Origin: an uncultured Acidobacteriota bacterium
GTDB lineage: Bacteria > Acidobacteriota > Thermoanaerobaculia > Multivoradales > JAHEKO01
Length of the DNA: 64,000 nucleotides
Direction: 5' to 3'
Assembly: GCA_963713825.1 (NCBI GenBank)
Contig: CAVQNG010000014.1
Coordinates: 128,001-192,000, forward strand
Below the pieces are notes generated by a model. The model ran no database searches. It had not been told where the DNA came from and worked only from the letters and a program-made list of their open reading frames with translations. Within the stretch, counting starts at the first letter, position 1; the number at the start of each line of letters is the position of its first letter. Made by a program: the position numbers and the translations under genes. Below, in pieces: positions 3,617 through 16,239 of the stretch.

Positions 3617-6600
3617 TCATCGAAAGTCATGGCTGGGGGCCTCGGCGAGGTCGGGAAGGCGCCAGAGCCTGTCGGCCTTGACGGAAAGGGTCCCATCCCG
3701 TTTCTGTAGCACGCCCTCGACAACGAGGCCGGGGGAGCGCACGATGAGCTGCCGGTGCTCTTGGAGCAGAGCGGGCATGACGATGGCCTGGGACATGCCG
3801 CTCTCGTCCTCGAGCGTGAGGAACAGAATGCCTTTGGCTGTTCCCGGCCTTTGGCGCACGGTAACAGCCCCCGCCGTCCGCACCCGTTGACCATTGGGAA
3901 CGCAGTGCAGATCGGCAGCAGGGGTGACTCCCTGTCGGTTCAGGCTCGCACGTAGATGCTCCAGCGGATGGGGCCCGGTCGTCATCCCGGTTCCGGCGTA
4001 GTCGGAGAGGGTCTCGTCGTAGGGGGACATTTCTGGAAGGGGAGAGGCTCTGCCTTCTCCCTCCCGACTCGGGTCCTGGGTCCTGGGTGGGTGGGGGAGC
4101 CCAAGCCCCGGGTCCCACTGCCCAGGACCATTTCCCTCGAAGAGGGGACCGGCGGGGCGGGCTGCGCGGGCTACCTGCCATAGAGCGCCGCGTCGGGTGG
4201 CGCCCAGAGAGGCCAAAGCCCCGATCTCTGCCAGGACATCCAACTCCTCGCGCCGCAGTCGGCAGCGTCGCACCAGATCGTCGGCGTTGGAGAAGGTTCT
4301 ACGCTCCTGGGCCCACTCGATGGCTTCACCGGACTCCTTGCGGAGGCCCCTGACGAAGCGCAGACCGAGTCGGGCAGCACCGACAGGGTCCTGGGTCCTG
4401 GGCCCTGGGTCCTGGGTTCGTGGTGGAGCCCAAGCCCCGAGCCCCAAGCCCGGGTGGGAGGAAGGCGAGGCCCCTTCCTCCCACCGACACTTCCACCCCG
4501 AGTGGTTCACGTCGATGGGGCGAACCTCGACACCGTGACGCTGCGCATCCTTGATCAGCGTGGCGGGGTAATAGAACCCCATGGGCCAGGCATTGAGCAA
4601 CGCGATCAGGAAGGCGGTCGGGTGGTGGGCCTTGAGATAGGCGCTGGCGTAGGCGATCAGTGCGAAGCTGGCGGCGTGGGATTCGGGGAAGCCGTAGAGA
4701 GCAAAGGCGGTGATGGCCTGAACGACCTGCTCCTGAGCCTCGCCGACGATGCCCTTCTTCGTCATGCCACGACGCAGCTTGGCTTCGAGGTCCTGCATCC
4801 TTTCGGCAGAACGCTTGAACCCCATGGCCCGGCGCAGGTCCTCGGCTTCGCCGCCAGTGAACCCGGCGGCCACCATGGCAACACGCAGGATCTGTTCCTG
4901 AAAGAGCAACACTCCCAACGTGCGTTCCAGGATCGGCTGCAAGCTCGGGTGGGCGTAGGTCACCTCCTGGCGCCCCATCCGGCGCTCGAAGTAGGGGTGC
5001 ACCATGCCGCCAACGATGGGTCCAGGTCGAATGATGGCGACCTGGATCACCAGATCGTAGAAGCGGGTAGGAGCGTTGCGGGGTAGAGAGGCCATCTGGG
5101 CGCGGCTTTCTACCTGGAACACGCCAACCGTGTCGGCCCTGCGAAGCATCTCGAAGGTGGTGGGGTCCTCGGGCGGTAGGTGAGCGAGGTCGATCGCGAC
5201 CTTCTCGTGCTGGCGGATGAGCGGGATCGCCTCCTCCAGAGCCTGCAGCATTCCGAGGCCCAGTAGATCGACTTTGATGATCCCCAAATCAGCGCAGTCG
5301 TCTTTGTCCCACTGCACGACCACCCGGTCCTGCATGGCGGCAGGCTCCAGGGGTACGACCTCGTCGAGCCGCCCGGCGGCCATCACCATGCCTCCCGAAT
5401 GCTGCCCCAGGTGCCGTGGCAGGTTCTGGATCTTGCGCCACATCTCGGCGAAGAGCCGAATGCGCGACTCCTCAGGATCGAAGCCGGCGGCCGAAAGCTC
5501 GGTGGAGAGCGATTTGGGGTCGCCACGGCTGGTGTCGTAGCGCCACGTCCCGAGCTGCTTGGCGAGGCGATTCACCTGCTCCGCCGAGTAACCCAGCGCC
5601 TTGGCCACTTCCCGCGCCGCCGAGCGGTCCCGGTAGGTGATGACATTGGCGGTCATGGCGGCACCGTGGGGCCCATAACGCCGATAGACGTACTGGATGA
5701 CCTTCTCCCTCTGATCCCCGGAGGGCAGATCGAGATCGATGTCGGGCCACTCGCCCCGCTCTTCGGACAGGAAACGTTCGAACAACAGTTCCATCTTCAC
5801 CGGGTCGACGGCGGTGATCGACAGGGCATAGCAGACGGCGCTATTCGCCGCCGAGCCCCGCCCCTGAGACAGGATTCCCTCCCGCTTGCAGAACTGCACG
5901 ATGTCCCAGACGATCAGGAAGTAGCCGGCGAGATCGAGCTTGTCGATCATGGCGAGCTCTTTGCCGATCTGGTCCTGACTGCGGCCTGTGAGTGGGCGAA
6001 AGCGACTGCGAGCACTGTTCCAGGTGATGTGCCGCAGGTAGGACATGGGCGTTTCGCCGGGTGGAACGGGGTAGTCGGGAAAGCGATAGCCGAGATCGGC
6101 CAGGGTGAAGTCGAGCTGCTGGGCCAACTCATAGCTGCCGACGAGAGCCTCTGGGTGATCGGCGAACAGTCGATGCATCTCCGCCGCGCCTTTCAGGTGT
6201 CGCTCCCGGTTGGCGGCAAGCCGTTGTCCGGCGGCATCGAGGTAGGTGTGGTGACGGATGCAGGTGAGGATGTCGTGCAGCCTCTTGTCTTCGTCTCGGG
6301 CGTAGCGCACTGCGTTGGTGGCGACGAGGGGGAGGTCGAGCTGTCGTGCCAGGTCAACGAGTGCCTGGTTGCGATGCTCCTCGTGCCGCAGTCGGTGTCG
6401 TTGGAGCTCGATGTGGACCCGCCCCTCGAAAAGACGAGACAGGTTGAGGAGCTCGCGCCGGGCCGAGTCGGCGCCACTGGTTTCCAAGGTGTGGGCCAGC
6501 AGCGCCTCGTCTCCGCCGGTGAGGCAGTGGAGCCCGGCGCTGTGCTGCTCGAGGTCCTGCCAAGCGACGCGAGCCTCACCCTTGGGTCGGTCTCGAGCTG

Positions 6601-7252
6601 CAGCGGTCAGCAAACGGCAGAGATTGCGGTAGCCGGTGCGATTGCCGACGAGCAGGGAGAGACGGACTTCAGGGCCTGGGTCCTGGGTCCTGGGCCCTGG
6701 GGGGGTGGGGGAGCCCAAGCCCCGAGCCCCAAGCCCTGGTGGGGTGAGGGGGGACACGACCACCTCCGCGCCGACGATGGCCTTGATCCCTGCTTGGCGG
6801 GCTGCCTGGTAGAAGCGGGGTGCGCCGTAGACACCGTTGCGGTCCAGCAGAGCGACGGCGTCGAGATTCAGGTCGCAGGCTCTCTGAATCAGGTCCTCGG
6901 GCAGCGAGGCGCCATCCAGGAACGAGAAGGCGGAAGCGGTGCGAAGCTCGGCGTAAGGCAGCGGCGCGCTCGCCCTCTTGCTACCGCTCGAGGATGTCGC
7001 GCCTGAAGGTCTTGGGTCCTGGGTCCTGGGTCCTGGGTGGGAGGGGGAGCCCGAGCCCCGGGTCCCAAGCCGGGATGGGTGGGTGGGAGTGTAGTTCCTT
7101 TGTCGCAGTTTCTCCTTGCGGGCTCCGGGGGACAGGTATCCGGGTGTCCGCTGGTTCGCCAGGCTGGCGAAATCGATGGTAGGAGCCGTGGTTTCCCGGC
7201 TCTTCTCGGGGCTCGGGGATTCGGTCGGTTTGGCAGGTGGCTTGTCAGTCAT
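3617..7252 (-). CDS. dnaE2: Error-prone DNA polymerase DnaE2 (ImuC)
   Basis: PHP-like start YAELRTASAFSFLDGAS, GRGSAANS, catalytic PDIDLD and KVDLLGL, YGFPESHAASFA, an OB domain, and the C-terminal SHDFR signature. ATG at 7252 overlaps the imuB stop (ATGACTGA). Confidence 0.95.
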   Translation of the reverse strand: MTDKPPAKPTESPSPEKSRETTAPTIDFASLANQRTPGYLSPGARKEKLRQRNYTPTHPSRLGTRGSGSPSHPGPRTQDPRPSGATSSSGSKRASAPLPYAELRTASAFSFLDGASLPEDLIQRACDLNLDAVALLDRNGVYGAPRFYQAARQAGIKAIVGAEVVVSPLTPPGLGARGLGSPTPPGPRTQDPGPEVRLSLLVGNRTGYRNLCRLLTAAARDRPKGEARVAWQDLEQHSAGLHCLTGGDEALLAHTLETSGADSARRELLNLSRLFEGRVHIELQRHRLRHEEHRNQALVDLARQLDLPLVATNAVRYARDEDKRLHDILTCIRHHTYLDAAGQRLAANRERHLKGAAEMHRLFADHPEALVGSYELAQQLDFTLADLGYRFPDYPVPPGETPMSYLRHITWNSARSRFRPLTGRSQDQIGKELAMIDKLDLAGYFLIVWDIVQFCKREGILSQGRGSAANSAVCYALSITAVDPVKMELLFERFLSEERGEWPDIDLDLPSGDQREKVIQYVYRRYGPHGAAMTANVITYRDRSAAREVAKALGYSAEQVNRLAKQLGTWRYDTSRGDPKSLSTELSAAGFDPEESRIRLFAEMWRKIQNLPRHLGQHSGGMVMAAGRLDEVVPLEPAAMQDRVVVQWDKDDCADLGIIKVDLLGLGMLQALEEAIPLIRQHEKVAIDLAHLPPEDPTTFEMLRRADTVGVFQVESRAQMASLPRNAPTRFYDLVIQVAIIRPGPIVGGMVHPYFERRMGRQEVTYAHPSLQPILERTLGVLLFQEQILRVAMVAAGFTGGEAEDLRRAMGFKRSAERMQDLEAKLRRGMTKKGIVGEAQEQVVQAITAFALYGFPESHAASFALIAYASAYLKAHHPTAFLIALLNAWPMGFYYPATLIKDAQRHGVEVRPIDVNHSGWKCRWEEGASPSSHPGLGLGAWAPPRTQDPGPRTQDPVGAARLGLRFVRGLRKESGEAIEWAQERRTFSNADDLVRRCRLRREELDVLAEIGALASLGATRRGALWQVARAARPAGPLFEGNGPGQWDPGLGLPHPPRTQDPSREGEGRASPLPEMSPYDETLSDYAGTGMTTGPHPLEHLRASLNRQGVTPAADLHCVPNGQRVRTAGAVTVRQRPGTAKGILFLTLEDESGMSQAIVMPALLQEHRQLIVRSPGLVVEGVLQKRDGTLSVKADRLWRLPDLAEAPSHDFR
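4071..4129. repeat. Heptamer-built hairpin element, copy D (inside dnaE2)
   Basis: (GGGTCCT)2-GGGTGGGTGGGGGAG-CCCAAGC-CCCGGGT-CCCACTG-CCCAGGA. Confidence 0.85.
4386..4460. repeat. Heptamer-built hairpin element, copy C (inside dnaE2)
   Basis: GGGTCCT GGGTCCT GGGCCCT GGGTCCT GGG...GGAG-CCCAAGC-CCCGAGC-CCCAAGC-CCGGGTGGGAG. Confidence 0.9.
6672..6753. repeat. Heptamer-built hairpin element, copy B (inside dnaE2)
   Basis: GGGCCT GGGTCCT GGGTCCT GGGCCCT GGGGGGGTGGGGGAG-CCCAAGC-CCCGAGC-CCCAAGC-CCTGGTGGGG. Confidence 0.9.
7008..7088. repeat. Heptamer-built hairpin element, copy A (inside the dnaE2 N-terminal extension)
   Basis: GGTCTT (GGGTCCT)3 GGGTGGGAGGGGGAG-CCCGAGC-CCCGGGT-CCCAAGC-CGGGATGGG. 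Confidence 0.9.
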
Positions 7253-8762
7253 AAATACCGTCGGCGTACCACTCGCCGGTGGCGCGCTGGAAGAAGATTC
7301 GGAAGATGCCGCCATCGGCGAGCTCGACATCCCAGTAGTCGCGTTCCACGGGTTTCTCCGACCACCACTCTTCCTCCATGCTCCATGGCCCCGAGGCCAC
7401 CTTCACGCGTCCCTGGATGCGGGGCCTCTTGGCCGAGCTCTCGCTGAGGATGGAGAGGATCTCCCGGGGAGAGGCGAGATGGGAGATCACCTCGAGGGGT
7501 ACCGGGGGTCGCAGCGTGCGTATGGCGAGCAGGCCCCGCCCCACTTGTTGTTCAGGGCGCACCTCGGGAGGAGGAGGGGGGGCGTACTCCACAAGGGCAG
7601 AACGCTCGGGACGGTGGCCGTTTACTGTCCGAGGTGAGCCGACGCGCTCGGGGCCGAGCAGAGCGAAGAGACGTGCCAGCGTTGTGGCCAGCTTGTCGGG
7701 AGACAGGGCGGGAGGACCGAAGAGGGAAAGCTGAGCCTCTCTTGGTCGATCGGGGTGGGCGACGATCGTGAATCCGGTGACTGGCGCAGCAGGTGACTCT
7801 GCCTCCAGATCGAGGCGAATCAGTGTCAGTAGGGTCTTGGCCTCTCGGGTAGGGGCCGGCAGCTGGATGGTGCGGAGGTGGTGACCATCGGGCTCGAGGC
7901 GCAGCGATGTGTCGAGGCGCGCACAGGCCAACCCCCGACTTTCGAGTCGTTGGCAGAGACGCTTCAAGGCCGCACCGGCCACGAAGAGAAAGGGCTCCAG
8001 GTTGACCAATGGCCACTCGAGCTCCATGCCCTCGGCAAAGTGTGGCGGCGGTTGATAGGGAACGAGGGGGCGAGAGTCCAACCCGCGGGCCTTCTCATGC
8101 AGCTGTCGGCCTGTCTCTCCGAGACGGCTGGCGACCTCGTTCTTGGGCAGCCGGGCGAAGTCACCGACAGAGCGGATTCCCCAGCGCTCGAGGGTGTCGA
8201 GTATTTCGAACTCGGCGGCGAGGCTGCGCAGGGGCAAGGGGGCGAGAAAGCTCGCTTCTTCACCTGCGGGCACCCGGTTGGGTGAGTCTGGAAGCTCTGC
8301 CGCCACCCGTGCCGCCAGCTTGCTCGAGGCGATGCCCACCCAGGTGGTCAAGCCAGCCTTGTCGGTCGTTATTGTCAGGGCATGTCCGAGGTCCTGTTCG
8401 GGAGAGTCTCCCGGGAAATGGCGATCGAGGCCGTCCAGCTCGAGGTAGGCAATACCGTCTCCTGCGTCCTCGACTCGGGGAGAAAAACTCTCGGCGATCT
8501 CCAACAGGCTTTCCTGAGTCGCTTTTTCACAGGACATGTCGCGAGCTCGAACGGTGAGATTGGGCAGCAGGGCCCGAGCCTGGGGAAGGGACATCCCGGG
8601 GCGAATGCCGACCTGGCGAGCCCTGCGAGCGGCAGCGACAACCCGGGCAGCATTGCTGTTGCCTTGAAAGATGGCTACGGCCTCTCCTCGCAGCTCGGGT
8701 TCACTGCGTAGACGAGCGGCGAGAGGGAACAGGGGGGTGAAGAGGCAGGCGATTCGGGGCAT
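7245..8762 (-). CDS. imuB: ImuB, catalytically inactive Y-family polymerase
   Basis: Y-family pattern (GIRPGMSLPQARAL, FSPRVE), beta-clamp motif QLSLF, C-terminal GPW..EEEWW...RDYWDV. Lies directly upstream of dnaE2. Confidence 0.92.
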   Translation of the reverse strand: MPRIACLFTPLFPLAARLRSEPELRGEAVAIFQGNSNAARVVAAARRARQVGIRPGMSLPQARALLPNLTVRARDMSCEKATQESLLEIAESFSPRVEDAGDGIAYLELDGLDRHFPGDSPEQDLGHALTITTDKAGLTTWVGIASSKLAARVAAELPDSPNRVPAGEEASFLAPLPLRSLAAEFEILDTLERWGIRSVGDFARLPKNEVASRLGETGRQLHEKARGLDSRPLVPYQPPPHFAEGMELEWPLVNLEPFLFVAGAALKRLCQRLESRGLACARLDTSLRLEPDGHHLRTIQLPAPTREAKTLLTLIRLDLEAESPAAPVTGFTIVAHPDRPREAQLSLFGPPALSPDKLATTLARLFALLGPERVGSPRTVNGHRPERSALVEYAPPPPPEVRPEQQVGRGLLAIRTLRPPVPLEVISHLASPREILSILSESSAKRPRIQGRVKVASGPWSMEEEWWSEKPVERDYWDVELADGGIFRIFFQRATGEWYADGIYD

Positions 8763-8781: not shown

Positions 8782-9600
8782 TCACCCCCCGATGGATGCC
8801 GTTGCAGTGCCGTAGATCAGCGCGGCAGGTGGCTGCAGTCGGAGGACCTCGGTTCGGTTGCCCTGTTGTCGGCGCATTTTCTGCAGAGTGAGGCGGGAAG
8901 AGAGCCCCACCAGAAGTTTGGGCCCCGGAGCAACTCCGGACCACAGAGCCCGACCGTAGTCGGCTTTCACCACACCGGCTGCTGCCGTGCCACTCACCCG
9001 GTAGGGGCTCGAGACGAGAAGTGCCGCCTGATGGCTCTGTGCCGCTTTTGCCAATCGCAGCCAAGAGGCTTCGACACCTCGCCCCCCAGGTACGGGTGGG
9101 TTGCCCAGGTCGACGATGACGAGTGGAAAGCCGCCGGCAAGCAGCACCTCGGCGCTGATCAGGGTCTGTTTCAGATGCCCGGGGCGGGCCCAGAGCAGTC
9201 GCTCGAGATCGACTCCTGCGGTCGCGGCTAGCTGAGGGTCGAAAGCGTCCCCCAGGTCTACCAATGCCGCCGCTTCTCCAGCCCGGGTGGCACTGGCGAG
9301 GGATGCGAGTATGGTGGAGAAGCGGCCGCTCGATTGGCGCCCGATGAGCTCGACGAGCTGCCCCTGCGGTAGCCCACCGACGAGCAGCTGGTCGAGAGCC
9401 GTGGCGGTGGGAAAGGGGGAGGGGAGGGGGGTCGCCGTGCGTTGCTGCACCCACTCGCGGCCACTGTTGAGATGGCTTTGCAGGTGGTGGGGAAGCTTCG
9501 AACGGAAGGTGCCGATCGTCGCAGAAGATCGCCTGGTAGTGGGTTCTGGTTCCTCGAAGGCTTTCTGTGGAGTCGTTGTCAGGGCTTGCGACAATGCCAT
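8782..9600 (-). CDS. imuA: ImuA / RecA-like mutagenesis protein
   Basis: LDQLLVGGLPQGQLVELIG, degenerate Walker A (GRQSSGRFS), AGVDLERLLWARP. First gene of the cassette. Confidence 0.88.
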   Translation of the reverse strand: MALSQALTTTPQKAFEEPEPTTRRSSATIGTFRSKLPHHLQSHLNSGREWVQQRTATPLPSPFPTATALDQLLVGGLPQGQLVELIGRQSSGRFSTILASLASATRAGEAAALVDLGDAFDPQLAATAGVDLERLLWARPGHLKQTLISAEVLLAGGFPLVIVDLGNPPVPGGRGVEASWLRLAKAAQSHQAALLVSSPYRVSGTAAAGVVKADYGRALWSGVAPGPKLLVGLSSRLTLQKMRRQQGNRTEVLRLQPPAALIYGTATASIGG

Positions 9601-9657
9601 GTTCCATTCCGTTTCCGGCTCGGAGAGCCGTGGGAGCGGGTGTTTTGCCAGACAAAC

Positions 9658-9686
9658 ATGCTAGGCGTAAATAAGGCGTAAGTCAA
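9658..9686 (-). promoter_or_regulatory. sigma70 promoter of imuA-imuB-dnaE2 with an embedded direct-repeat operator (candidate SOS box)
   Basis: The minus strand reads TTGACT-17 bp-TAGCAT. TTACGCCT occurs twice at an 11-bp offset across the spacer. Confidence 0.75.
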
Positions 9687-9794
9687 GGTGAAAAGGCATC
9701 CATTCCCCCGCATGATTCCTGACCGCGCCAGCAGGCTAGAACTTGCTAGACTTTCTGTCAGTCGAAACGACCCTACCTTGGCAATCAGGAGGCC

Positions 9795-10409
9795 TTGAAC
9801 ATGCGCTCGAGGACTCGGCAAGTTCCCCGTAGAACCTCCAGAGCCTCTGTCTGTCTTGCTTTTCTACTGGCGATCCTGAGCGGGCTGGTTGCCTCTCCAT
9901 CCGTCACCTCGCAGACTGAAGGAGCAGCCGAAATGACCTTGACGCTGACCTCTACCCGTTTCGAAAACGGCGCCGAGATTCCCCGCCGCTACACCTGTGA
10001 GGGCGAAGACCTCTCACCACCACTGGCATGGTCAGGAGCTCCCGAGGGCACGGTGGGCCTGGCTCTCATCGTCGACGACCCGGATGCACCCGACCCCGCT
10101 GCACCGAAGATGACCTGGGTTCATTGGGTGGTGTACAACCTGCCGGTCGCTGCTGGCAGCCTTGCGGAAGGCATCGCCTTCGAAGAGCTACCAGCAGCGA
10201 CCGGAATAGGACTGAACGACTGGCAGCGCGCCGAGTACGGGGGCCCCTGTCCTCCCATCGGCCGCCACCGCTACTTTTTCAAGCTCTACGCTCTCGATAC
10301 CCGATTACCCGATGGGTGGCAACCGACCAAAGCCCAACTCGAGATGGCCATCCAAGGGCACATCCTGGCCCAGACCGAGTTGATGGGTACCTACCAGAAA
10401 CAGCGCTGA
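9795..10409 (+). CDS. YbhB/YbcL (PEBP/Raf kinase inhibitor-like) protein
   Basis: SPPLAW, DDPDAP, WVHW and YGGPCPPIGRHRYFFKLYALD motifs. Start is uncertain (about 9801 with a signal peptide, or 9933). Confidence 0.9.
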   Translation: MNMRSRTRQVPRRTSRASVCLAFLLAILSGLVASPSVTSQTEGAAEMTLTLTSTRFENGAEIPRRYTCEGEDLSPPLAWSGAPEGTVGLALIVDDPDAPDPAAPKMTWVHWVVYNLPVAAGSLAEGIAFEELPAATGIGLNDWQRAEYGGPCPPIGRHRYFFKLYALDTRLPDGWQPTKAQLEMAIQGHILAQTELMGTYQKQR

Positions 10410-10428
10410 GCGATCTAGGAAAAGGCGA

Positions 10429-10755
10429 CTACCTGCCGCCCTCTTCTTCCTGGAGCTTTTCGCCTTCTTCCTTGAGCTTCTCGCCGGCGTCTTCCATCAC
10501 CTCGCCGGTGGCTTTTTTGGCGTCATCGACCATCTCGCCGGTGGCTTCGGCAGCCTCTTCGCCCATCTCCTTGGCGCCTTCAGCCATCTCACCGGCAGTG
10601 TCCTTGACCTCTTCGGCGCTCTCCTTGACGGCGTCGCCGGCAGCGTCGACGGCCTCGCCCGCTGATTCACGAGCTTCTTTGCCACAGGCTGTGGCAGAGA
10701 GTGTCAACGCTCCGACAGCAGCTACGATCAACAATACCCAAAGTACCTTCTTCAT
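10429..10755 (-). CDS. Small acidic Ala/Glu-rich lipoprotein
   Basis: MKK plus a hydrophobic stretch and lipobox-like SATAC, followed by a repetitive helical body; GGAG RBS. Confidence 0.8.
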   Translation of the reverse strand: MKKVLWVLLIVAAVGALTLSATACGKEARESAGEAVDAAGDAVKESAEEVKDTAGEMAEGAKEMGEEAAEATGEMVDDAKKATGEVMEDAGEKLKEEGEKLQEEEGGR

Positions 10756-10852
10756 TTCCGAGCTCCTCCCTTTTCCCTGGTGATTTCAGTCAATACGGGC
10801 TGACGATCCCGGTCAGTGCCTTTGCCACGAGATTGTCGTGCCGTAGAAGAGA

Positions 10853-10880
10853 ATCCTAGCGCTTTGGGAGTGGAAGTCAA
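10853..10880 (-). promoter_or_regulatory. Possible sigma70 promoter of the lipoprotein gene
   Basis: The minus strand reads TTGACT-16 bp-TAGGAT. Confidence 0.4.
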
Positions 10881-10982
10881 CTAGGCTTGGGGAACCGGGC
10901 CCAGGACGAGCGGTTGGAGGTCTGGCTGGGCGAGAGGAAGGACGCCTGGTCGCCGCTATAATCGCTGCGTCGGACAGGAGTC

Positions 10983-12344
10983 ATGATCTACACAAATTCG
11001 GGAGGAACCATGGATAGGCCGATCCACCGTGTGGTCGATTTAATCGACGAGGATAGTCAGCAGATCTTCAACATGGATCTAGAGGAAGCGCGCGCGCTTC
11101 TCTTGCACGAAGACGCGACTGCATTGATGCAGTTGCTGGGGTCGTTTGCACTCACAACACGACAGGGTGAAGTCATCCGGATGGCCAGGAGCCTCGACCG
11201 GCCGATGCGCTACTTCCTGGCCAAACAGGAGAGTGGGCCTCTGCTCGTGGTGGCCGACCGCATCGACGAGATCAAGGAGTTTCTCGAGGCGGAAGGATAT
11301 GGCGACCAGTTTCACCCGAGCTATACCCGCATGGTGCCTGCCCATCATGTGACTTCGATTCGACTGATCGGCTGTCCCGACCCCAACCCGCTCTACCAGC
11401 GATTTCTGGAGCCTGCGGCCGACACCTTGCAGGCCGACGTCGATCTGATTGGCGAGCGCTATGTCAGGGCACTCTGGGAGGCTCTGGATGCCTGGCTACA
11501 GGTTGTGCCTCGACGAGAGCCCATCGGAGTTCTGTTCTCCGGCGGTCTCGACAGCGGTTCGGTGCTGCTGTGCCTGTACAAGCTCTTGCTCGAACGCGGT
11601 CAGAGTCCATCGCGATTGAAGGCGTTCACACTGGCCGTCGATGGTCTCGGCTCGGATGCGACGCAGGCCCGCGAGTTTCTGCGTCGAACAGATCTCGAGG
11701 TGCTGGGCGAGCCGGTGGAAGTCGATTCCGGGAGCCTCGACCCCTTCCAGGCAGTCGATGTGATCGAGGACTACAAGCCCCTGGACGTCGAGTGCGCGAC
11801 CGTCAACCTGGCCCTGGTCGAGGAGCTGCGTCGGCGCTATCCCGATTGGCTGTATCTGGCCGATGGCGATGGGGGCGATGAGAATCTCAAGGACTATCCG
11901 ATCGAAGAGAATCGCGAGCTGACGATTCGTAGCGTGGTCAATAACCCGTTGTTGTATCAAGAAGGATGGGGAGTCGATCGAATCAAGCACTCGCTGACGT
12001 ACAGCGGCGGGCAGAGCCGTGGATGCGTCAGGGTTCACGCCCCGCTGCGAAAGTACGGCTTTCTGGGCTTCAGTCCCTTCACGCATCCAAGTCTGGTATC
12101 CCTGGCTGCCGCCATTCCCTTTGACGAGCTCACCAGGGGATCGATCGAAACGCTCTATTCGCTGAAGGGTGAGATCTTGCGGCGCGGCGTCAAGGCTGTC
12201 ACTGGAATGGAGCTACCGGTCTTCCCAAAGCGGAGGTTTCAAGAGGGTGCCGGACCCGAGTCGGTCTTGGCGAAGTGCTTTCCGGCGGATCCCGAGGCCT
12301 ACCGGAATCACTATCTGGATCTCTACCGGCACGACCACAGGTGA
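10983..12344 (+). CDS. Asparagine synthase-related PP-loop protein
   Basis: VLFSGGLDSGS PP-loop, DGDGGDE motif and C-terminal PKRRFQEG. No N-terminal catalytic Cys. TATAAT at 10957-10962. Alternative start at 11010. Confidence 0.85.
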   Translation: MIYTNSGGTMDRPIHRVVDLIDEDSQQIFNMDLEEARALLLHEDATALMQLLGSFALTTRQGEVIRMARSLDRPMRYFLAKQESGPLLVVADRIDEIKEFLEAEGYGDQFHPSYTRMVPAHHVTSIRLIGCPDPNPLYQRFLEPAADTLQADVDLIGERYVRALWEALDAWLQVVPRREPIGVLFSGGLDSGSVLLCLYKLLLERGQSPSRLKAFTLAVDGLGSDATQAREFLRRTDLEVLGEPVEVDSGSLDPFQAVDVIEDYKPLDVECATVNLALVEELRRRYPDWLYLADGDGGDENLKDYPIEENRELTIRSVVNNPLLYQEGWGVDRIKHSLTYSGGQSRGCVRVHAPLRKYGFLGFSPFTHPSLVSLAAAIPFDELTRGSIETLYSLKGEILRRGVKAVTGMELPVFPKRRFQEGAGPESVLAKCFPADPEAYRNHYLDLYRHDHR

Positions 12345-13300
12345 ACCGCAGCTCGGAAGACCTGCGGATCCGAAAGCTCCGTCCTGCCAAGCGTCCATTG
12401 GACCCCTGGCGCCCGATCGGTGTCCAGCAAGAAGAGGAGCGCAACGCCGAGGGCGACCTCGTTCCATGCCAGACGATCTTCCTGACCGGGCGAGAGTGTC
12501 CCTTTACGTGCGTGTTTTGCGATCTGTGGCAATACACGCTGGACGATCCGACGCCTTCCGGGGCGATACCAGCCCAGATCTCGCGCGCGTTCGAAGAGTT
12601 CGGACGGCCCCCTGACGGGGCCACGATCAAGCTGTACAACGCCAGCAATTTCTGCGATGACAAAGCCGTGCCTCGGGCGGATTGGCCGGCCATTGCCGAG
12701 CTGCTGAGCTCTTTCTCACGGATCGTCGTCGAATGTCATCCACGACTGGTAAATGAGAGGTGCGTTGAGTTCGCTGAGCGGCTCGAGGGGCGGCTCGAGA
12801 TTGCCATGGGCCTCGAGACGGTGCACCCAGTGTCGCTGCCGAGGCTCAACAAGAAACTGACGCTGGAGTCGTTCGGCCGCGCCGCGTCACTTTTGCGATC
12901 GTTCGGTGTCGGTATCCGATCCTTTGTCCTGGTCGGGGCGCCCTACATCCCGGCGGTAGAGACTGTCGAGTGGGCTGTTCGCTCGGTGGACCACGCACTC
13001 GAATGCGGCTCGGAGGTCGTCAGTCTCATTCCGGTCCGCGGTGGCATTGGAGAACTGCAGAGGTTGGCCGACCTGGGTGCCTTTTGTCCGCCAACCGCGC
13101 AGCAACTCGAAGCAGCCCTCGACGGCGCCCTCCGACTGAATCGAGGCATCGTCCTGGCCGACCTCTGGGATGCGCAGAGCCTGGCTGGCTGCACCACCTG
13201 CCGGAGCGCCCGTATCGAGCGCATGGAGCAACTCAATCGGGTCGGTGGTTGTCTCCCACCGGTTGCTTGTCCAGTCTGCGACCACGGCGACCCGCTCTAG
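12341..13300 (+). CDS. Radical SAM protein, RaSEA/archaeal Elp3-like family
   Basis: CPFTCVFC (Cx3Cx2C), IKLYNASNF, VECHP, EIAMGLET and LNKK motifs; C-terminal CTTC and CPVC. The GTG start overlaps the upstream stop (GTGA). Confidence 0.85.
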   Translation: MNRSSEDLRIRKLRPAKRPLDPWRPIGVQQEEERNAEGDLVPCQTIFLTGRECPFTCVFCDLWQYTLDDPTPSGAIPAQISRAFEEFGRPPDGATIKLYNASNFCDDKAVPRADWPAIAELLSSFSRIVVECHPRLVNERCVEFAERLEGRLEIAMGLETVHPVSLPRLNKKLTLESFGRAASLLRSFGVGIRSFVLVGAPYIPAVETVEWAVRSVDHALECGSEVVSLIPVRGGIGELQRLADLGAFCPPTAQQLEAALDGALRLNRGIVLADLWDAQSLAGCTTCRSARIERMEQLNRVGGCLPPVACPVCDHGDPL

Positions 13301-13329
13301 GGCCGGCGCCGTGGTAGATCACGCGCCCT

Positions 13330-16239
13330 TCAGTCGGTGTCTGAGACAGCTGCCTGCATGGCGTAACTCTCGACGGGATCACAGGTGCAGATCAGGTTGC
13401 GGTCTCCCCAGACGTTGTCGATGCGTCCCACAGGTGGCCAGAACTTCCTCTCCTTGACCCAGTCGGCGGGATAGGCGGCGGTTTCCCGGCTGTAGCCGTG
13501 GGGCCAGGTGTCAGAAGTCACGAAGCCTGCTGTATGGGGTGCGTTGCGCAGCAGGTTGTCCTCCCGGTCGCCGCGGCCCTCTTCCAGATCACGGATCTCC
13601 GCTCGGATCGCGATGAGGGCGTCACAGAGCCTGTCGAGCTCGGCTTTAGCCTCGCTTTCGGTCGGCTCGACCATCATCGTTCCCGCCACCGGCCAGGACA
13701 TGGTCGGGGCGTGGAAGCCGTAGTCCATGAGGCGCTTGGCGACATCGTCCACCGTAATGCCCGCGGTTTCCTTGAACTGGCGGAAATCGATGATGAACTC
13801 GTGAGCCACGAAGCCGCGCATCCCGGTGTAAACAACCGGATAGTGCTCGATGAGTCGCTTGGCCATGTAGTTGGCGTTCAGAATGGCAACTTGACTGGCT
13901 CTCTTCAGGCCGTCGGGCCCCATCATCGCGATGTACATCCAGGAGATGGGCAAGACGCCGGGACTGCCGAAGGGCGCTGCCGAAACTGGTCCGATCGCCT
14001 TTTCGCCGCCGGTCCCCACGACCGGGTGACCTGGCAGGAACGGCGCGAGATGTTCGGCGACACAGATCGGCCCCACGCCCGGACCACCACCGCCGTGCGG
14101 AATGGCGAAGGTCTTGTGGAGGTTCAGGTGACAGACGTCAGCGCCGATGTCGGAGAGGTGGCAAAGGCCTACCTGAGCGTTCATGTTGGCCCCGTCGAGA
14201 TAGACCAGGCCGCCGTTCTCGTGCACGATCTCGCAGACCTCGCGCACATGCTCTTCAAAGACTCCGTGGGTCGAGGGGTAGGTGATCATGGCCGCGGCGA
14301 GCCGGTCCTTGTGTCCTTCGGCCTTGGATCGGAGGTCGTCCAGGTCGAAGTCGCCCCGCTCATCGGAGGCGACCGGCACGACTTTGTAGCCAGCCATTAC
14401 CGAGCTCGCCGGATTGGTGCCATGCGCGGAAGTCGGAATCAGGCAGACATCTCTGCCCACATCGTCGCGATCCTGGTGGTAGGCGCGAATCACCATCAGG
14501 CCCGTGAACTCGCCCTGCGAGCCGGCGTTGGGCTGCAGAGAGGTGGCGCTGAAGCCGGTGATCTCGGCCAACCAGCCTTCCAGTTGCGCGAACAGTTGGT
14601 AGTAGCCCTCCGCCTGCTCGGGTGGAGCAAACGGATGCAGGCCGCCAAACTCGGGCCACGTGATGGGTACCATCTCGGCTGTTGCATTGAGCTTCATCGT
14701 GCAAGAGCCCAGGGAGATCATGGAATGGGCGAGGGATAGGTCCCTCTCCTGCAGCTGCTGCATGTAGCGCAGCATTCCGTGCTCCGAGTGGTAGCGCTTG
14801 AAAACGGCTTGCGTCAGGTATTCGGTCTGGCGGGCAAAATCCTCCGGGTAGCCGCCCTCCGCTTCTTTCACGAGGTCCTCGAGCGTGAAGGGCAGCTTGT
14901 GCCCCTGCGAGAAGACCTTCAGGAGCTGTTCCAAGTCCTTACGTGTCGTTGTTTCGTCCAGGGAAATGCCGATTCCGCCGTCCGGGTAATGGCGCAGGTT
15001 GAGACACCGGCTGCGAGCCGCGGTCAGGATCGGCCCATCCTCGCCAGGCGCGAGCTTGACTTTCAGTGTGTCGAAGTAGAGACCGTCACCAAGATCGAAG
15101 TTTAGACGTCGCAGTCCAGCGGCCATCACTCGAGTGAGAGCGTGGACCCGCTCGCCGATGCGGCGCAGACCCCGGGGGCCGTGATAGACCGCGTACATCG
15201 AGGCCATGACGGCCAGAAGGACCTGAGCAGTACAGATGTTGCTTGTCGCCTTCTCGCGGCGAATATGCTGTTCGCGAGTCTGGCGGGCGAGGCGGAAGGC
15301 CGGGTTGCCATTGGCATCCTTCGACAGACCGACGATGCGTCCGGGCAGTTGTCGCTCCAGGGCCTGGCTCGTGGAGAGGAAGGCGGCGTGAGGGCCGCCG
15401 TAGCCCATCGGCACTCCGAACCTCTGGCTCGAGCCGACGGCGATATCGGCGCCAAACTCGCCCGGTGGCTTGAGAAGGGTCAGCGCCAGCAGGTCGGTGG
15501 CGACGATGAGATAGGCACCCGCCGCGTGTAGGCGGTCGGCGACCTTGGAGTAGTCCTCGACCCGCCCGTCGGTGGTCGGATACTGGACCAGCGCCGCGAA
15601 GAGGTCCATTCCTTCCGCGTCGATGCTCTCGGGTGTGCCGACATGGACCTCGATGCCGAGCGGTCGACAGCGGGTCTGGATCACGGCGATGGTTTGAGGG
15701 TGACAGTCTTCGGCGACGAAGAACCCCTTCTTCTTGCCCCGTGTGGCCGCCAGAGTCATGCTCATGGCTTCCGCTCCGGCCGTGCCCTCATCGAGCAGTG
15801 AGGCGTTGGCCAGTGGCAAGCCGGTGAGATCGGCCACCATGGTCTGGAAGTTCATCAGAGCTTCCAAGCGACCCTGGGCGATCTCGGCCTGATAGGGCGT
15901 GTACTGGGTGTACCAGCCCGGGTTCTCCAGGATATTGCGCTGAATCACCGGCGGAGTGAAGCAGTTGTAGTAGCCCATACCGATGAAGGACCGGTAGACC
16001 TGATTGCGATGGGCGATCTCTCTCAGATCGGCAAGCGCTTCGTGCTCACTTCTGGCCGGCGGCAGGTCCAGGGGCTCCTGGAGGCGAATCGATTCTGGCA
16101 CCACGGCTGCAACCAGCTCATCGAGGGATTCGAATCCGAGGCTCTCGAGCATCTCTGGAATCGCGGCTCGGCTTGGTCCCAGGTGGCGATCCTCGAACCG
16201 ATCGGTTGGCGCAAAGGGGTCTGGTGTGGTCATGGACAT
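13330..16239 (-). CDS. gcvP: Glycine dehydrogenase (glycine cleavage P protein)
   Basis: [35 protein letters not shown] and the PLP lysine in HLNLHKTF; 969 aa. Confidence 0.98.

Follow-up and report, generated by a model that had tools for sequence, protein, structure and literature searches.

A bacterial gene pair of an asparagine-synthetase-like ATP enzyme and a distantly RaSEA-like radical SAM enzyme: a possible ligation and C-N cleavage pathway

In the synthesis of archaeosine, according to passages of PMC11298593, the radical S-adenosylmethionine (SAM) enzyme RaSEA converts preQ0-Lys-tRNA to archaeosine, whereby the lysine skeleton is removed and its nitrogen is left behind; RaSEA forms a complex with ArcS, and ArcS is active solely within it. 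Related conversions are described in parts of two further reports, namely the demodification of cmnm5s2U to nm5s2U by YhcC/MnmL (bioRxiv 10.64898/2026.05.18.725915) and the regeneration of preQ1 from queuine by QueL (PMC11130926). Enzymes that resemble asparagine synthetase are credited, in sections of PMC13060819, with beta-lactam formation, lasso cyclisation, peptide C-terminal amidation and nitrile formation. Both enzyme types meet in two adjacent genes that lie at positions 10983 to 13300 of a 64,000-nucleotide stretch of DNA, hereafter the window, from an uncultured Acidobacteriota bacterium (GenBank assembly GCA_963713825.1, contig CAVQNG010000014.1, positions 128,001 to 192,000). Gene 1 encodes an asparagine-synthetase-like ATP enzyme and gene 2 a radical SAM enzyme. 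A first-pass annotation of the sequence had compared the pair with archaeosine synthesis and proposed an ATP-dependent ligation followed by radical C-N cleavage; the pair has now been analysed in silico together with its homologues.

The coupled genes and their products

Both genes are real and intact. An open reading frame (ORF) at 10983..12344 (+) and a GTG-started one at 12341..13300 (+) have been confirmed, with 453 codons open from position 10983 and 319 codons from the GTG at 12341 to the end at 13300. The two-gene unit of the first-pass annotation was borne out by reading the ORFs and their translations, including the GTGA overlap of start and stop at 12341..12344 (+), a sign of translational coupling; the N-terminus read from the GTG aligns with the homologues. 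The quoted motifs were likewise recovered from the translations: SGGLDS and GDGGDE in gene 1; CPFTCVFC (a Cx3Cx2C motif), TIFLTG, IKLYNASNF, VECHP, EIAMGLET, LNKK and the C-terminal Cys pairs CTTC and CPVC in gene 2. The most likely start of gene 1 is ATG 11010 and not 10983, because its homologues, in an alignment of 26 sequences from several phyla (A1), begin at the residue matching Met10, and because a Shine-Dalgarno-like GGGAGGA (11000..11006, +) precedes ATG 11010 by 3 nucleotides. Gene 1 (11010..12344, +) then encodes 444 residues, and the best 120 homologues listed almost all measure 434-456 residues, one reaching 467. Homologues of both genes reach E-values of about 1e-200 and below, far beyond chance.

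The product of gene 1 belongs to the Asn-synthase superfamily of PP-loop enzymes and lacks the glutaminase cysteine, as had been read from its motifs; Pfam, A1 and the predicted fold agree on this. The Asn_synthase profile search proposed as a check matched PF00733 (E 2.7e-8), the match spanning residues 178-309 and thus the ATP-pyrophosphatase core only. With TIGR01536, the AsnB family of NCBIfam, the protein scores 26.5 bits, well below the cut-off of 267.1. No conserved cysteine that could act as the nucleophile of an N-terminal-nucleophile glutaminase was found among the 26 sequences of A1, and neither start gives a Cys at residue 2, which is Asp when translation begins at ATG 11010 and Ile when it begins at 10983. 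The PP-loop SGGLDSG (residues 177-183; 11538..11558, +), an ATP pyrophosphatase motif, is invariant at S177, G178, G179, D181, S182 and G183, and SGGxDS together with the acidic GxGxDE motif occurs in 26/26 sequences. The same genome encodes a genuine AsnB elsewhere (423.8 bits, over the cut-off); the PP-loop aligns with SGGIDS, and DGDGGDE with GEGGDE, of this protein (hhalign E 1.5e-6). Since a true asnB is present, gene 1 is not the housekeeping asparagine synthetase; its homologues are annotated at source as ‘asparagine synthase (glutamine-hydrolysing)’.

The sequence conservation of gene 1 is unusually high for a gene of patchy distribution: the mean column identity of A1 is 66%, and homologues across phyla are 54-92% identical to the window protein. 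Invariant segments comprise the PP-loop, DGDGGDENLKDY, GCPDPNP and KRRFQ, and the (nearly) invariant DGDGGDE (11862..11882, +) opens the most conserved stretch, residues 285-337. The AlphaFold2 model has a predicted local distance difference test (pLDDT) value of 83 and a predicted template modelling (pTM) score of 0.86, with residues 290-333 as the only low-confidence part. This part coincides with the most conserved stretch, which suggests that it may be a mobile active-site loop. Foldseek places beta-lactam synthetase 1mbz_A first (E 3.2e-13, query TM score (TMq) 0.65, 463 aligned columns); chains of beta-lactam synthetase fill the first ten ranks (E 3e-13 to 1e-11, TM 0.58-0.65), and human and E. 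coli asparagine synthetase (TM 0.59-0.64), CarA 1q19 (E 8.6e-10) and TsnB9 are also listed. Because these matches extend over the full length, both domains of the AsnB architecture are present and only the Cys nucleophile is absent, i.e. gene 1 shows the two-domain AsnB-like fold with inactive N-terminal domain that is typical of beta-lactam and carbapenam synthetases. By sequence, the PDB yielded nothing beyond weak asparagine synthetase matches (E 0.0075).

Gene 2 (12341..13300, +) encodes a radical SAM enzyme of 319 residues. The cysteines of its CPFTCVFC motif (C53, C57 and C60; 12497..12520, +), which would hold the radical SAM [4Fe-4S] cluster, are invariant in 30/30 sequences of the gene 2 alignment (A2). 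Besides the Cx3Cx2C motif, the protein has a partial TIM-barrel fold with Z 13-17 to many radical SAM structures, as expected of this superfamily; PF04055 is matched at E 2.9e-5, its 24.7 bits falling slightly short of the gathering score of 29.5. The suspected resemblance to RaSEA held in part. The nearest curated family is indeed TIGR01210 (E 9.1e-19), but the score of 67.8 bits stays below the cut-off of 212.15, and the match joins gene 2 residues 33-232 to model positions 5-210 of 313, the C-terminal third of the protein finding no counterpart in the model. Judged from its sequence, gene 2 is a distant relative of the RaSEA family and not a member. Nor does its partner provide the TGT or PUA match in Pfam expected of an ArcS; ArcS was not searched for in the genome. 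The second NCBIfam match of gene 2 is TIGR01212 (MnmL/YtqA, YhcC; 18.3 bits, E 0.001), and Pfam and NCBIfam gave no SPASM-type family match. Over its own cut-off, no curated family of these two collections matches either protein, except for the generic Asn_synthase domain of gene 1.

The AlphaFold2 model of gene 2 (pLDDT 94) finds its top Foldseek match in the radical SAM domain of Elp3 (8pty_C, E 6.8e-8), whereas VIA-align, which is independent of Foldseek, ranks the queuine lyase QueL first (6p78, Z 17.2, root-mean-square deviation 3.4, 218 aligned). Towards the C-terminus, a CxxC...CxxC arrangement (C284, C287, C310, C313; 13190..13279, +) is kept in most of A2 and is a candidate metal site, for either Zn or an auxiliary Fe-S cluster. 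Homologues of gene 2 bear the source names ‘radical SAM enzyme (TIGR01210 family)’ and ‘archaeosine synthase beta-subunit’. The family is large: among 1.84 billion representatives, 557 clusters at 50% identity were matched with E <= 1e-30. The matches of the two proteins in the ESM Atlas are their own families only.

Linkage, distribution and the third gene

A scan with one genome per species yielded 41 loci with a gene 2 relative from about seven phyla: Acidobacteriota/Thermoanaerobaculia/Vicinamibacterales, ‘Deltaproteobacteria’/Polyangiaceae (Myxococcota), Planctomycetota, Gemmatimonadota, Rhodothermales, Verrucomicrobiota and Kapaibacteria. The neighbourhood is conserved, gene 1 being located directly upstream of gene 2 on the same strand in 34/41 loci. 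Among the carriers is a cultured organism, Allorhodopirellula solitaria CA85, with the pair at L031. In four of the seven remaining loci the upstream flank is shorter than 1.1 kb, and three (L028, L037, L038) have unrelated neighbours. The genomes of six of the seven (all except L032) were tested, and every one carries a single gene 2 orthologue or locus together with one gene 1 orthologue on another contig. Five loci lack the C-terminal CxxC...CxxC of gene 2 (L026, L028, L037, L038, L039), and in all five the gene 1 orthologue is unlinked; loss of the Cys4 site accompanies loss of linkage in Planctomycetota, Verrucomicrobiota and Kapaibacteria. L009 is also unlinked from gene 1, yet it retains some of the C-terminal cysteines.

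Among 151 evenly sampled Acidobacteriota genomes, gene 1 was detected in 12, gene 2 in the same 12, and neither gene in the other 139 (the unpublished genome G024 is counted among the carriers). The two genes are adjacent in all 12, with a 1-kb gap in G011. Nothing that had been set beforehand as grounds for abandoning the proposal was encountered: the pairing is conserved, and gene 2 falls into no unrelated characterised family. Twelve homologues are longer; five of these carry PF00733 (four also PF04055) and two carry halogenase domains (one also PF04055). They look like fusions, although, as gene calls from single contigs, some may be frameshift artefacts. Complex prediction for gene 1 and gene 2 from A1 and A2 returned a score of 0.00, which has no bearing either way. 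As read from gene order and co-occurrence, the two genes constitute one operon and an obligate enzyme pair, and the proteins very probably work together in one accessory pathway.

Clustering of neighbouring ORFs revealed a third gene, a flavoprotein of about 520 residues encoded directly downstream of gene 2 in 24/41 loci; L022 and L007 are examples of such three-gene loci. Its profile matches PltM (E 2.8e-76) and the tetracycline 7-halogenase CtcP (E 2.3e-73) over the full length, with CmlS and other flavin-dependent halogenases as the next matches. The third gene has characteristic features of these enzymes; (i) full-length similarity; (ii) the flavin-binding GxGxxG, with G11, G13 and G16 invariant, as is K88; (iii) a conserved FxDPLFSTG segment of the FxDPxFSxG type; (iv) a lysine aligned with that of PltM's GIKLGFSF segment, which we take to be the catalytic lysine. 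Weak NCBIfam matches to the protein-maturing flavoenzymes QhpG (50.6 bits) and GoxB (38.3 bits) remain far below the cut-offs. According to PDB entry names, the solved members of the halogenase clade act on phloroglucinol and tetracycline, both free phenolic compounds.

The third gene lies directly downstream in 9/12 pair-bearing Acidobacteriota genomes (G024 again included); the exceptions are G011 and two members of one genus, the window's genome and G119. Among the 139 genomes that lack the pair, a single, weaker match occurs (G034, E 2.1e-77). Since G131, from the same family as the window's genome, has the third gene, its absence is a loss in the window's lineage, where gcvP has become the direct neighbour of gene 2. 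The ancestral unit is a three-gene cassette of the ligase, the radical SAM enzyme and the PltM/CtcP-like, halogenase-like flavoprotein. In one carrier, a frameshift or a pseudogene is suggested by the gene 2 orthologue matching in two pieces (G005:C86:151631-152602; model positions 7-149 and 150-305); gene 1 and the halogenase-like gene of this genome look intact.

The cassette is accessory and occurs in a minority of genomes of every phylum sampled. Gene 1 is carried by 12/151 Acidobacteriota, 5/121 Planctomycetota and 13/121 Gemmatimonadota genomes, i.e. 4-11% per phylum, where the Planctomycetota and Gemmatimonadota samples each include a centre genome picked for carrying gene 1. The patchy distribution in combination with the high conservation suggests that the cassette probably spreads horizontally. 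Apart from the halogenase-like gene, no conserved neighbour was found across the examined loci; the flanks consist of unrelated housekeeping or mobile genes (e.g. IMP dehydrogenase, UvrD, thymidylate kinase, transposases and peptidases). No small ORF is conserved across phyla beside the cassette, the recurring ones being shadows of larger neighbouring genes. None of the three proteins matched a defence system in PADLOC, and tblastn with gene 1 found nothing in the plasmid collection at E <= 1e-20. The median isoelectric points are acidic throughout (5.3 for gene 1, 5.5 for gene 2 and 6.2 for the third protein), and Pfam found no RNA-binding domain, including PUA and THUMP, in the proteins of the pair. 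In Planctomycetota, two unlinked copies of gene 1 adjoin genes of another kind: at L043 (3690-4835) a gene of the tRNA (uracil-5)-methyltransferase family (TrmA/RlmD-like; PF05958, E 8.6e-19), and at L044 (6377-6835) an ORF with a weak DTW domain (E 8.7e-7, below the cut-off).

A possible connection with queuosine synthesis has also been followed. As the first-pass annotation had observed, neither a precursor peptide nor tgt or que genes stand beside the pair. Elsewhere, the window's genome (G000) encodes a tgt (481.5 bits) as well as a QueD-like gene whose 87.8 bits narrowly miss the cut-off; no QueC over the cut-off was found there, only short generic PP-loop fragments, and no QueF. The proposed test of co-occurrence with que genes gave no consistent relation to queC: QueC exceeds the cut-off in 8/12 pair-bearing Acidobacteriota genomes, and a match is present in 139/151 genomes overall (the unpublished genomes G024 and G049 being part of this tally). 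Hence the pair has no need of QueC and does not take its place, and the candidature of the pair as a QueC replacement was rejected on the strength of the eight carriers that possess both. The four pair-bearing genomes without QueC (G000, G119, G131, G005) all belong to the window's order. The presence of tgt and a QueD-like gene in the window's genome, where QueC and QueF have no match over the cut-off, together with the lack of QueC in all four, suggests salvage of queuosine precursors in this lineage.

A proposed function and its alternatives

From the gene structure, folds, motifs, co-occurrence, third gene and patchiness set out above, we infer the following chemical steps and substrate class. 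Gene 1 would adenylate a carboxylate by means of its PP-loop and, lacking a glutaminase nucleophile, would join it to the amino group of an amino-acid-type donor, giving an N-substituted amide. Gene 2 would then cleave the N-C bond of this adduct through a 5'-deoxyadenosyl radical, the nitrogen remaining on the product. The net result would be an amidation or amination without glutamine hydrolysis, following the logic of ArcS/RaSEA. Ligation of a donor and subsequent C-N cleavage are proposed because RaSEA, MnmL and QueL, the characterised relatives of gene 2, all cleave C-N bonds; the analogy becomes somewhat stronger with MnmL/YhcC and queuine lyase also leaving nitrogen behind. As substrate, a common small aromatic or heteroaromatic metabolite is more likely than tRNA, and the third enzyme, where present, would halogenate or oxygenate its ring. 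The pair probably makes a small molecule rather than modifying tRNA, since the RaSEA cut-off is missed, a halogenase-like third gene exists, the distribution is patchy and no consistent relation to queC was found. That the molecule may be an electron-rich aromatic one is proposed because of the substrates of the halogenase clade, the patchy distribution and the absence of RNA-binding domains. For the whole ligate-then-cleave mechanism, we estimate a probability of roughly one in three (0.35). Only tentatively may it be generalised to a route in which nitrogen is installed without glutaminase or free ammonia, a donor being ligated to a carboxylate and a RaSEA/QueL-like lyase stripping off its carbon skeleton, to yield an often halogenated aromatic or deazapurine-type amide in at least six phyla.

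A number of observations weigh against this mechanism. It leans on distant relatives, gene 2 scoring 67.8 bits against the RaSEA cut-off of 212 and 18.3 bits with MnmL. The likeness to queuine lyase is structural only, no PDB sequence matching gene 2 or its profile A2 at E <= 0.1, and the Z of 17.2 exceeds that of the next row, 15.5, by less than 2. The substrates of the three characterised relatives of gene 2 are, without exception, tRNA or 7-deazapurine bases, and two of the four unlinked gene 1 orthologues, those at L043 and L044, adjoin genes of RNA-modification type, a faint hint of RNA modification. On the side of gene 1, the best-matching fold, beta-lactam synthetase, forms an intramolecular amide and needs no donor, and free ammonia is a possible nitrogen source. 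As for the third gene, it is missing from the window and was not found in the window's genome. The motif WxWxIP is characteristic of flavin-dependent halogenases; where PltM has GWLWVIPF, the third gene reads GWxYxLRF, and because of this segment the enzyme may halogenate or may only oxygenate or hydroxylate.

Gene 1 may instead close or form an amide alone within a lactam or amide natural-product pathway, in which gene 2 would perform an unrelated radical tailoring (C-C bond formation, epimerisation, dehydrogenation or methylation) and the flavoprotein would halogenate where present. We regard this as possible, with the odds clearly against it. The Foldseek ranking of gene 1, with beta-lactam synthetase in all of the top ten places and carbapenam synthetase also listed, agrees with such a pathway, as do the PltM/CtcP-like third gene, the patchy, accessory distribution and the asparagine-synthetase-like beta-lactam, lasso, amidation and nitrile enzymes known from portions of PMC13060819. 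However, the human and E. coli asparagine synthetases score almost equally (TM 0.59-0.64), which means that the fold does not discriminate; no polyketide synthase, nonribosomal peptide synthetase or precursor-supply enzyme is conserved nearby at the examined loci; and every one of the characterised enzymes nearest to gene 2 is a C-N lyase.

A modification of tRNA or rRNA nucleosides, in which the pair would install an amide, amidine or amine on a base in the manner of ArcS/RaSEA, MnmL or Elp3, is unlikely. Its appeal lies in the closest relatives of gene 2 by sequence and Foldseek (RaSEA, MnmL/YhcC and Elp3), all of which act on tRNA, in queuine lyase acting on a 7-deazapurine base, in the 54-92% identity of gene 1 across phyla, as expected for a fixed macromolecular substrate, and in the unlinked gene 1 copies beside the U5-methyltransferase-family gene (L043) and the weak DTW-domain ORF (L044). 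The small number of carriers in the three phyla counted above, the acidity of both proteins and the lack of a PUA, THUMP or other RNA-binding domain in Pfam speak against it, as do the free phenolic substrates of the third gene's solved clade members and the record of queC, which is neither required nor replaced (8/12 carriers against 139/151 overall).

Still less probable is an action of the pair on a peptide or protein encoded elsewhere, by C-terminal amidation or nitrile formation, lasso-type cyclisation or radical cross-linking. Asparagine-synthetase-like enzymes do amidate, nitrilate and cyclise peptides, as extracts of PMC13060819 state, and the halogenase-like protein has its weak, sub-cut-off QhpG and GoxB matches; against this stand the lack of a small ORF conserved across phyla beside the cassette, the lack of a conserved leader-peptidase, RRE (recognition element of ribosomally synthesised and post-translationally modified peptides) or transporter nearby, and the missing SPASM-type match of gene 2. 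That an ordinary asparagine synthetase, the annotation borne by gene 1 homologues, stands by chance beside an unrelated radical SAM gene is already contradicted and hardly credible, given 26.5 bits against an AsnB cut-off of 267, the absent Cys nucleophile, the genuine asnB elsewhere (423.8 bits) and an identical presence and absence of both genes across 151 genomes.

Flanking features and comparison with known systems

Upstream of the pair, an ORF at 9795-10409 (+) was read from its translation as PEBP-like. It is followed by a small Glu/Ala-rich, lipoprotein-like ORF at 10429-10755 (-), identified in the same way, which has a lipoprotein-like signal, a Glu/Ala/Gly-rich body and a 33-nucleotide internal repeat in three copies (10486-10605), and which is kept beside the pair only in the closest relatives. 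The TATAAT reported upstream of gene 1 is present as a hexamer at 10957..10962 (+) and is a candidate -10 element; in a consensus scan no -35 fitted it, and the + strand yielded no complete -35/-10 promoter. Within 9500-14000 of the window, Rfam showed no riboswitch before gene 1 and returned only sub-threshold noise of microRNA models inside the PEBP-like ORF. Downstream, a convergent ORF at 13330-16239 (-) reads as glycine-dehydrogenase-like. At a greater distance, a 1237-codon polymerase-like ORF (3617..7330, -), DnaE2/ImuC-like by its translation, precedes ORFs that read as ImuB-like (7245..8762, -) and ImuA-like (8782..9600, -). The polymerase-like ORF contains four copies of a GC-rich repeat of about 79 nucleotides (4058-4136, 4387-4465, 6672-6750 and 7008-7086; 61-86% identity to the reference copy), which form in-frame ...PGPRTQDPGP... 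inserts.

The pair family is not rare, and if the proposed mechanism is true, the genes that currently bear the names ‘asparagine synthase’ or ‘archaeosine synthase beta-subunit’, which number thousands, would gain an assigned function. Radical N-dealkylation of the RaSEA/MnmL/QueL type would then be a general biosynthetic strategy outside tRNA metabolism, and the archaeal ArcS/RaSEA logic would have been carried over to carboxylate chemistry. The halogenase-like partner offers a practical handle, as a halogen isotope pattern eases product detection by mass spectrometry. Searches of an open-access full-text library brought up no literature on the pair.

Compared to the ArcS-RaSEA system of archaeosine synthesis in Euryarchaeota, the present pair likewise combines a group-transfer enzyme with a radical SAM enzyme. 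There are major differences, which relate to the partner, an ATP enzyme of asparagine-synthetase fold here and a TGT/PUA-type ArcS there, and to the setting, the pair being bacterial, patchy, without a link to queC and often accompanied by the halogenase-like third gene. As far as the portions of the cited reports describe them, the radical SAM enzymes MnmL/YhcC (TIGR01212) and QueL (6p78) break a C-N bond, with the amine staying on the base. In contrast to gene 2, neither works with an asparagine-synthetase-like partner, and the similarity amounts to 18.3 bits for MnmL, with no sequence-level match for QueL.

Beta-lactam and carbapenam synthetases share with gene 1 the full-length fold including the N-terminal domain, the PP-loop and the absence of the catalytic Cys. 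They differ in sequence (15-17% identity) and length (about 500 residues against 444); moreover, no clavam or carbapenem genes are located near the pair, and the obligate partner of gene 1 belongs to the radical SAM superfamily. As found in other genomes, the third gene resembles PltM and CtcP in the full-length profile match, GxGxxG, the FxDPxFSxG-type segment and the aligned lysine, and departs from them in GWxYxLRF in place of GWLWVIPF. A sponge halogenase cluster, as outlined in part of bioRxiv 10.64898/2026.08.03.742642, has a different architecture, formed from an adenylation domain, a halogenase, a radical SAM enzyme and a P450. The pair thus consists of known superfamilies and would follow an established chemical logic; what is new is the partnership and its setting.

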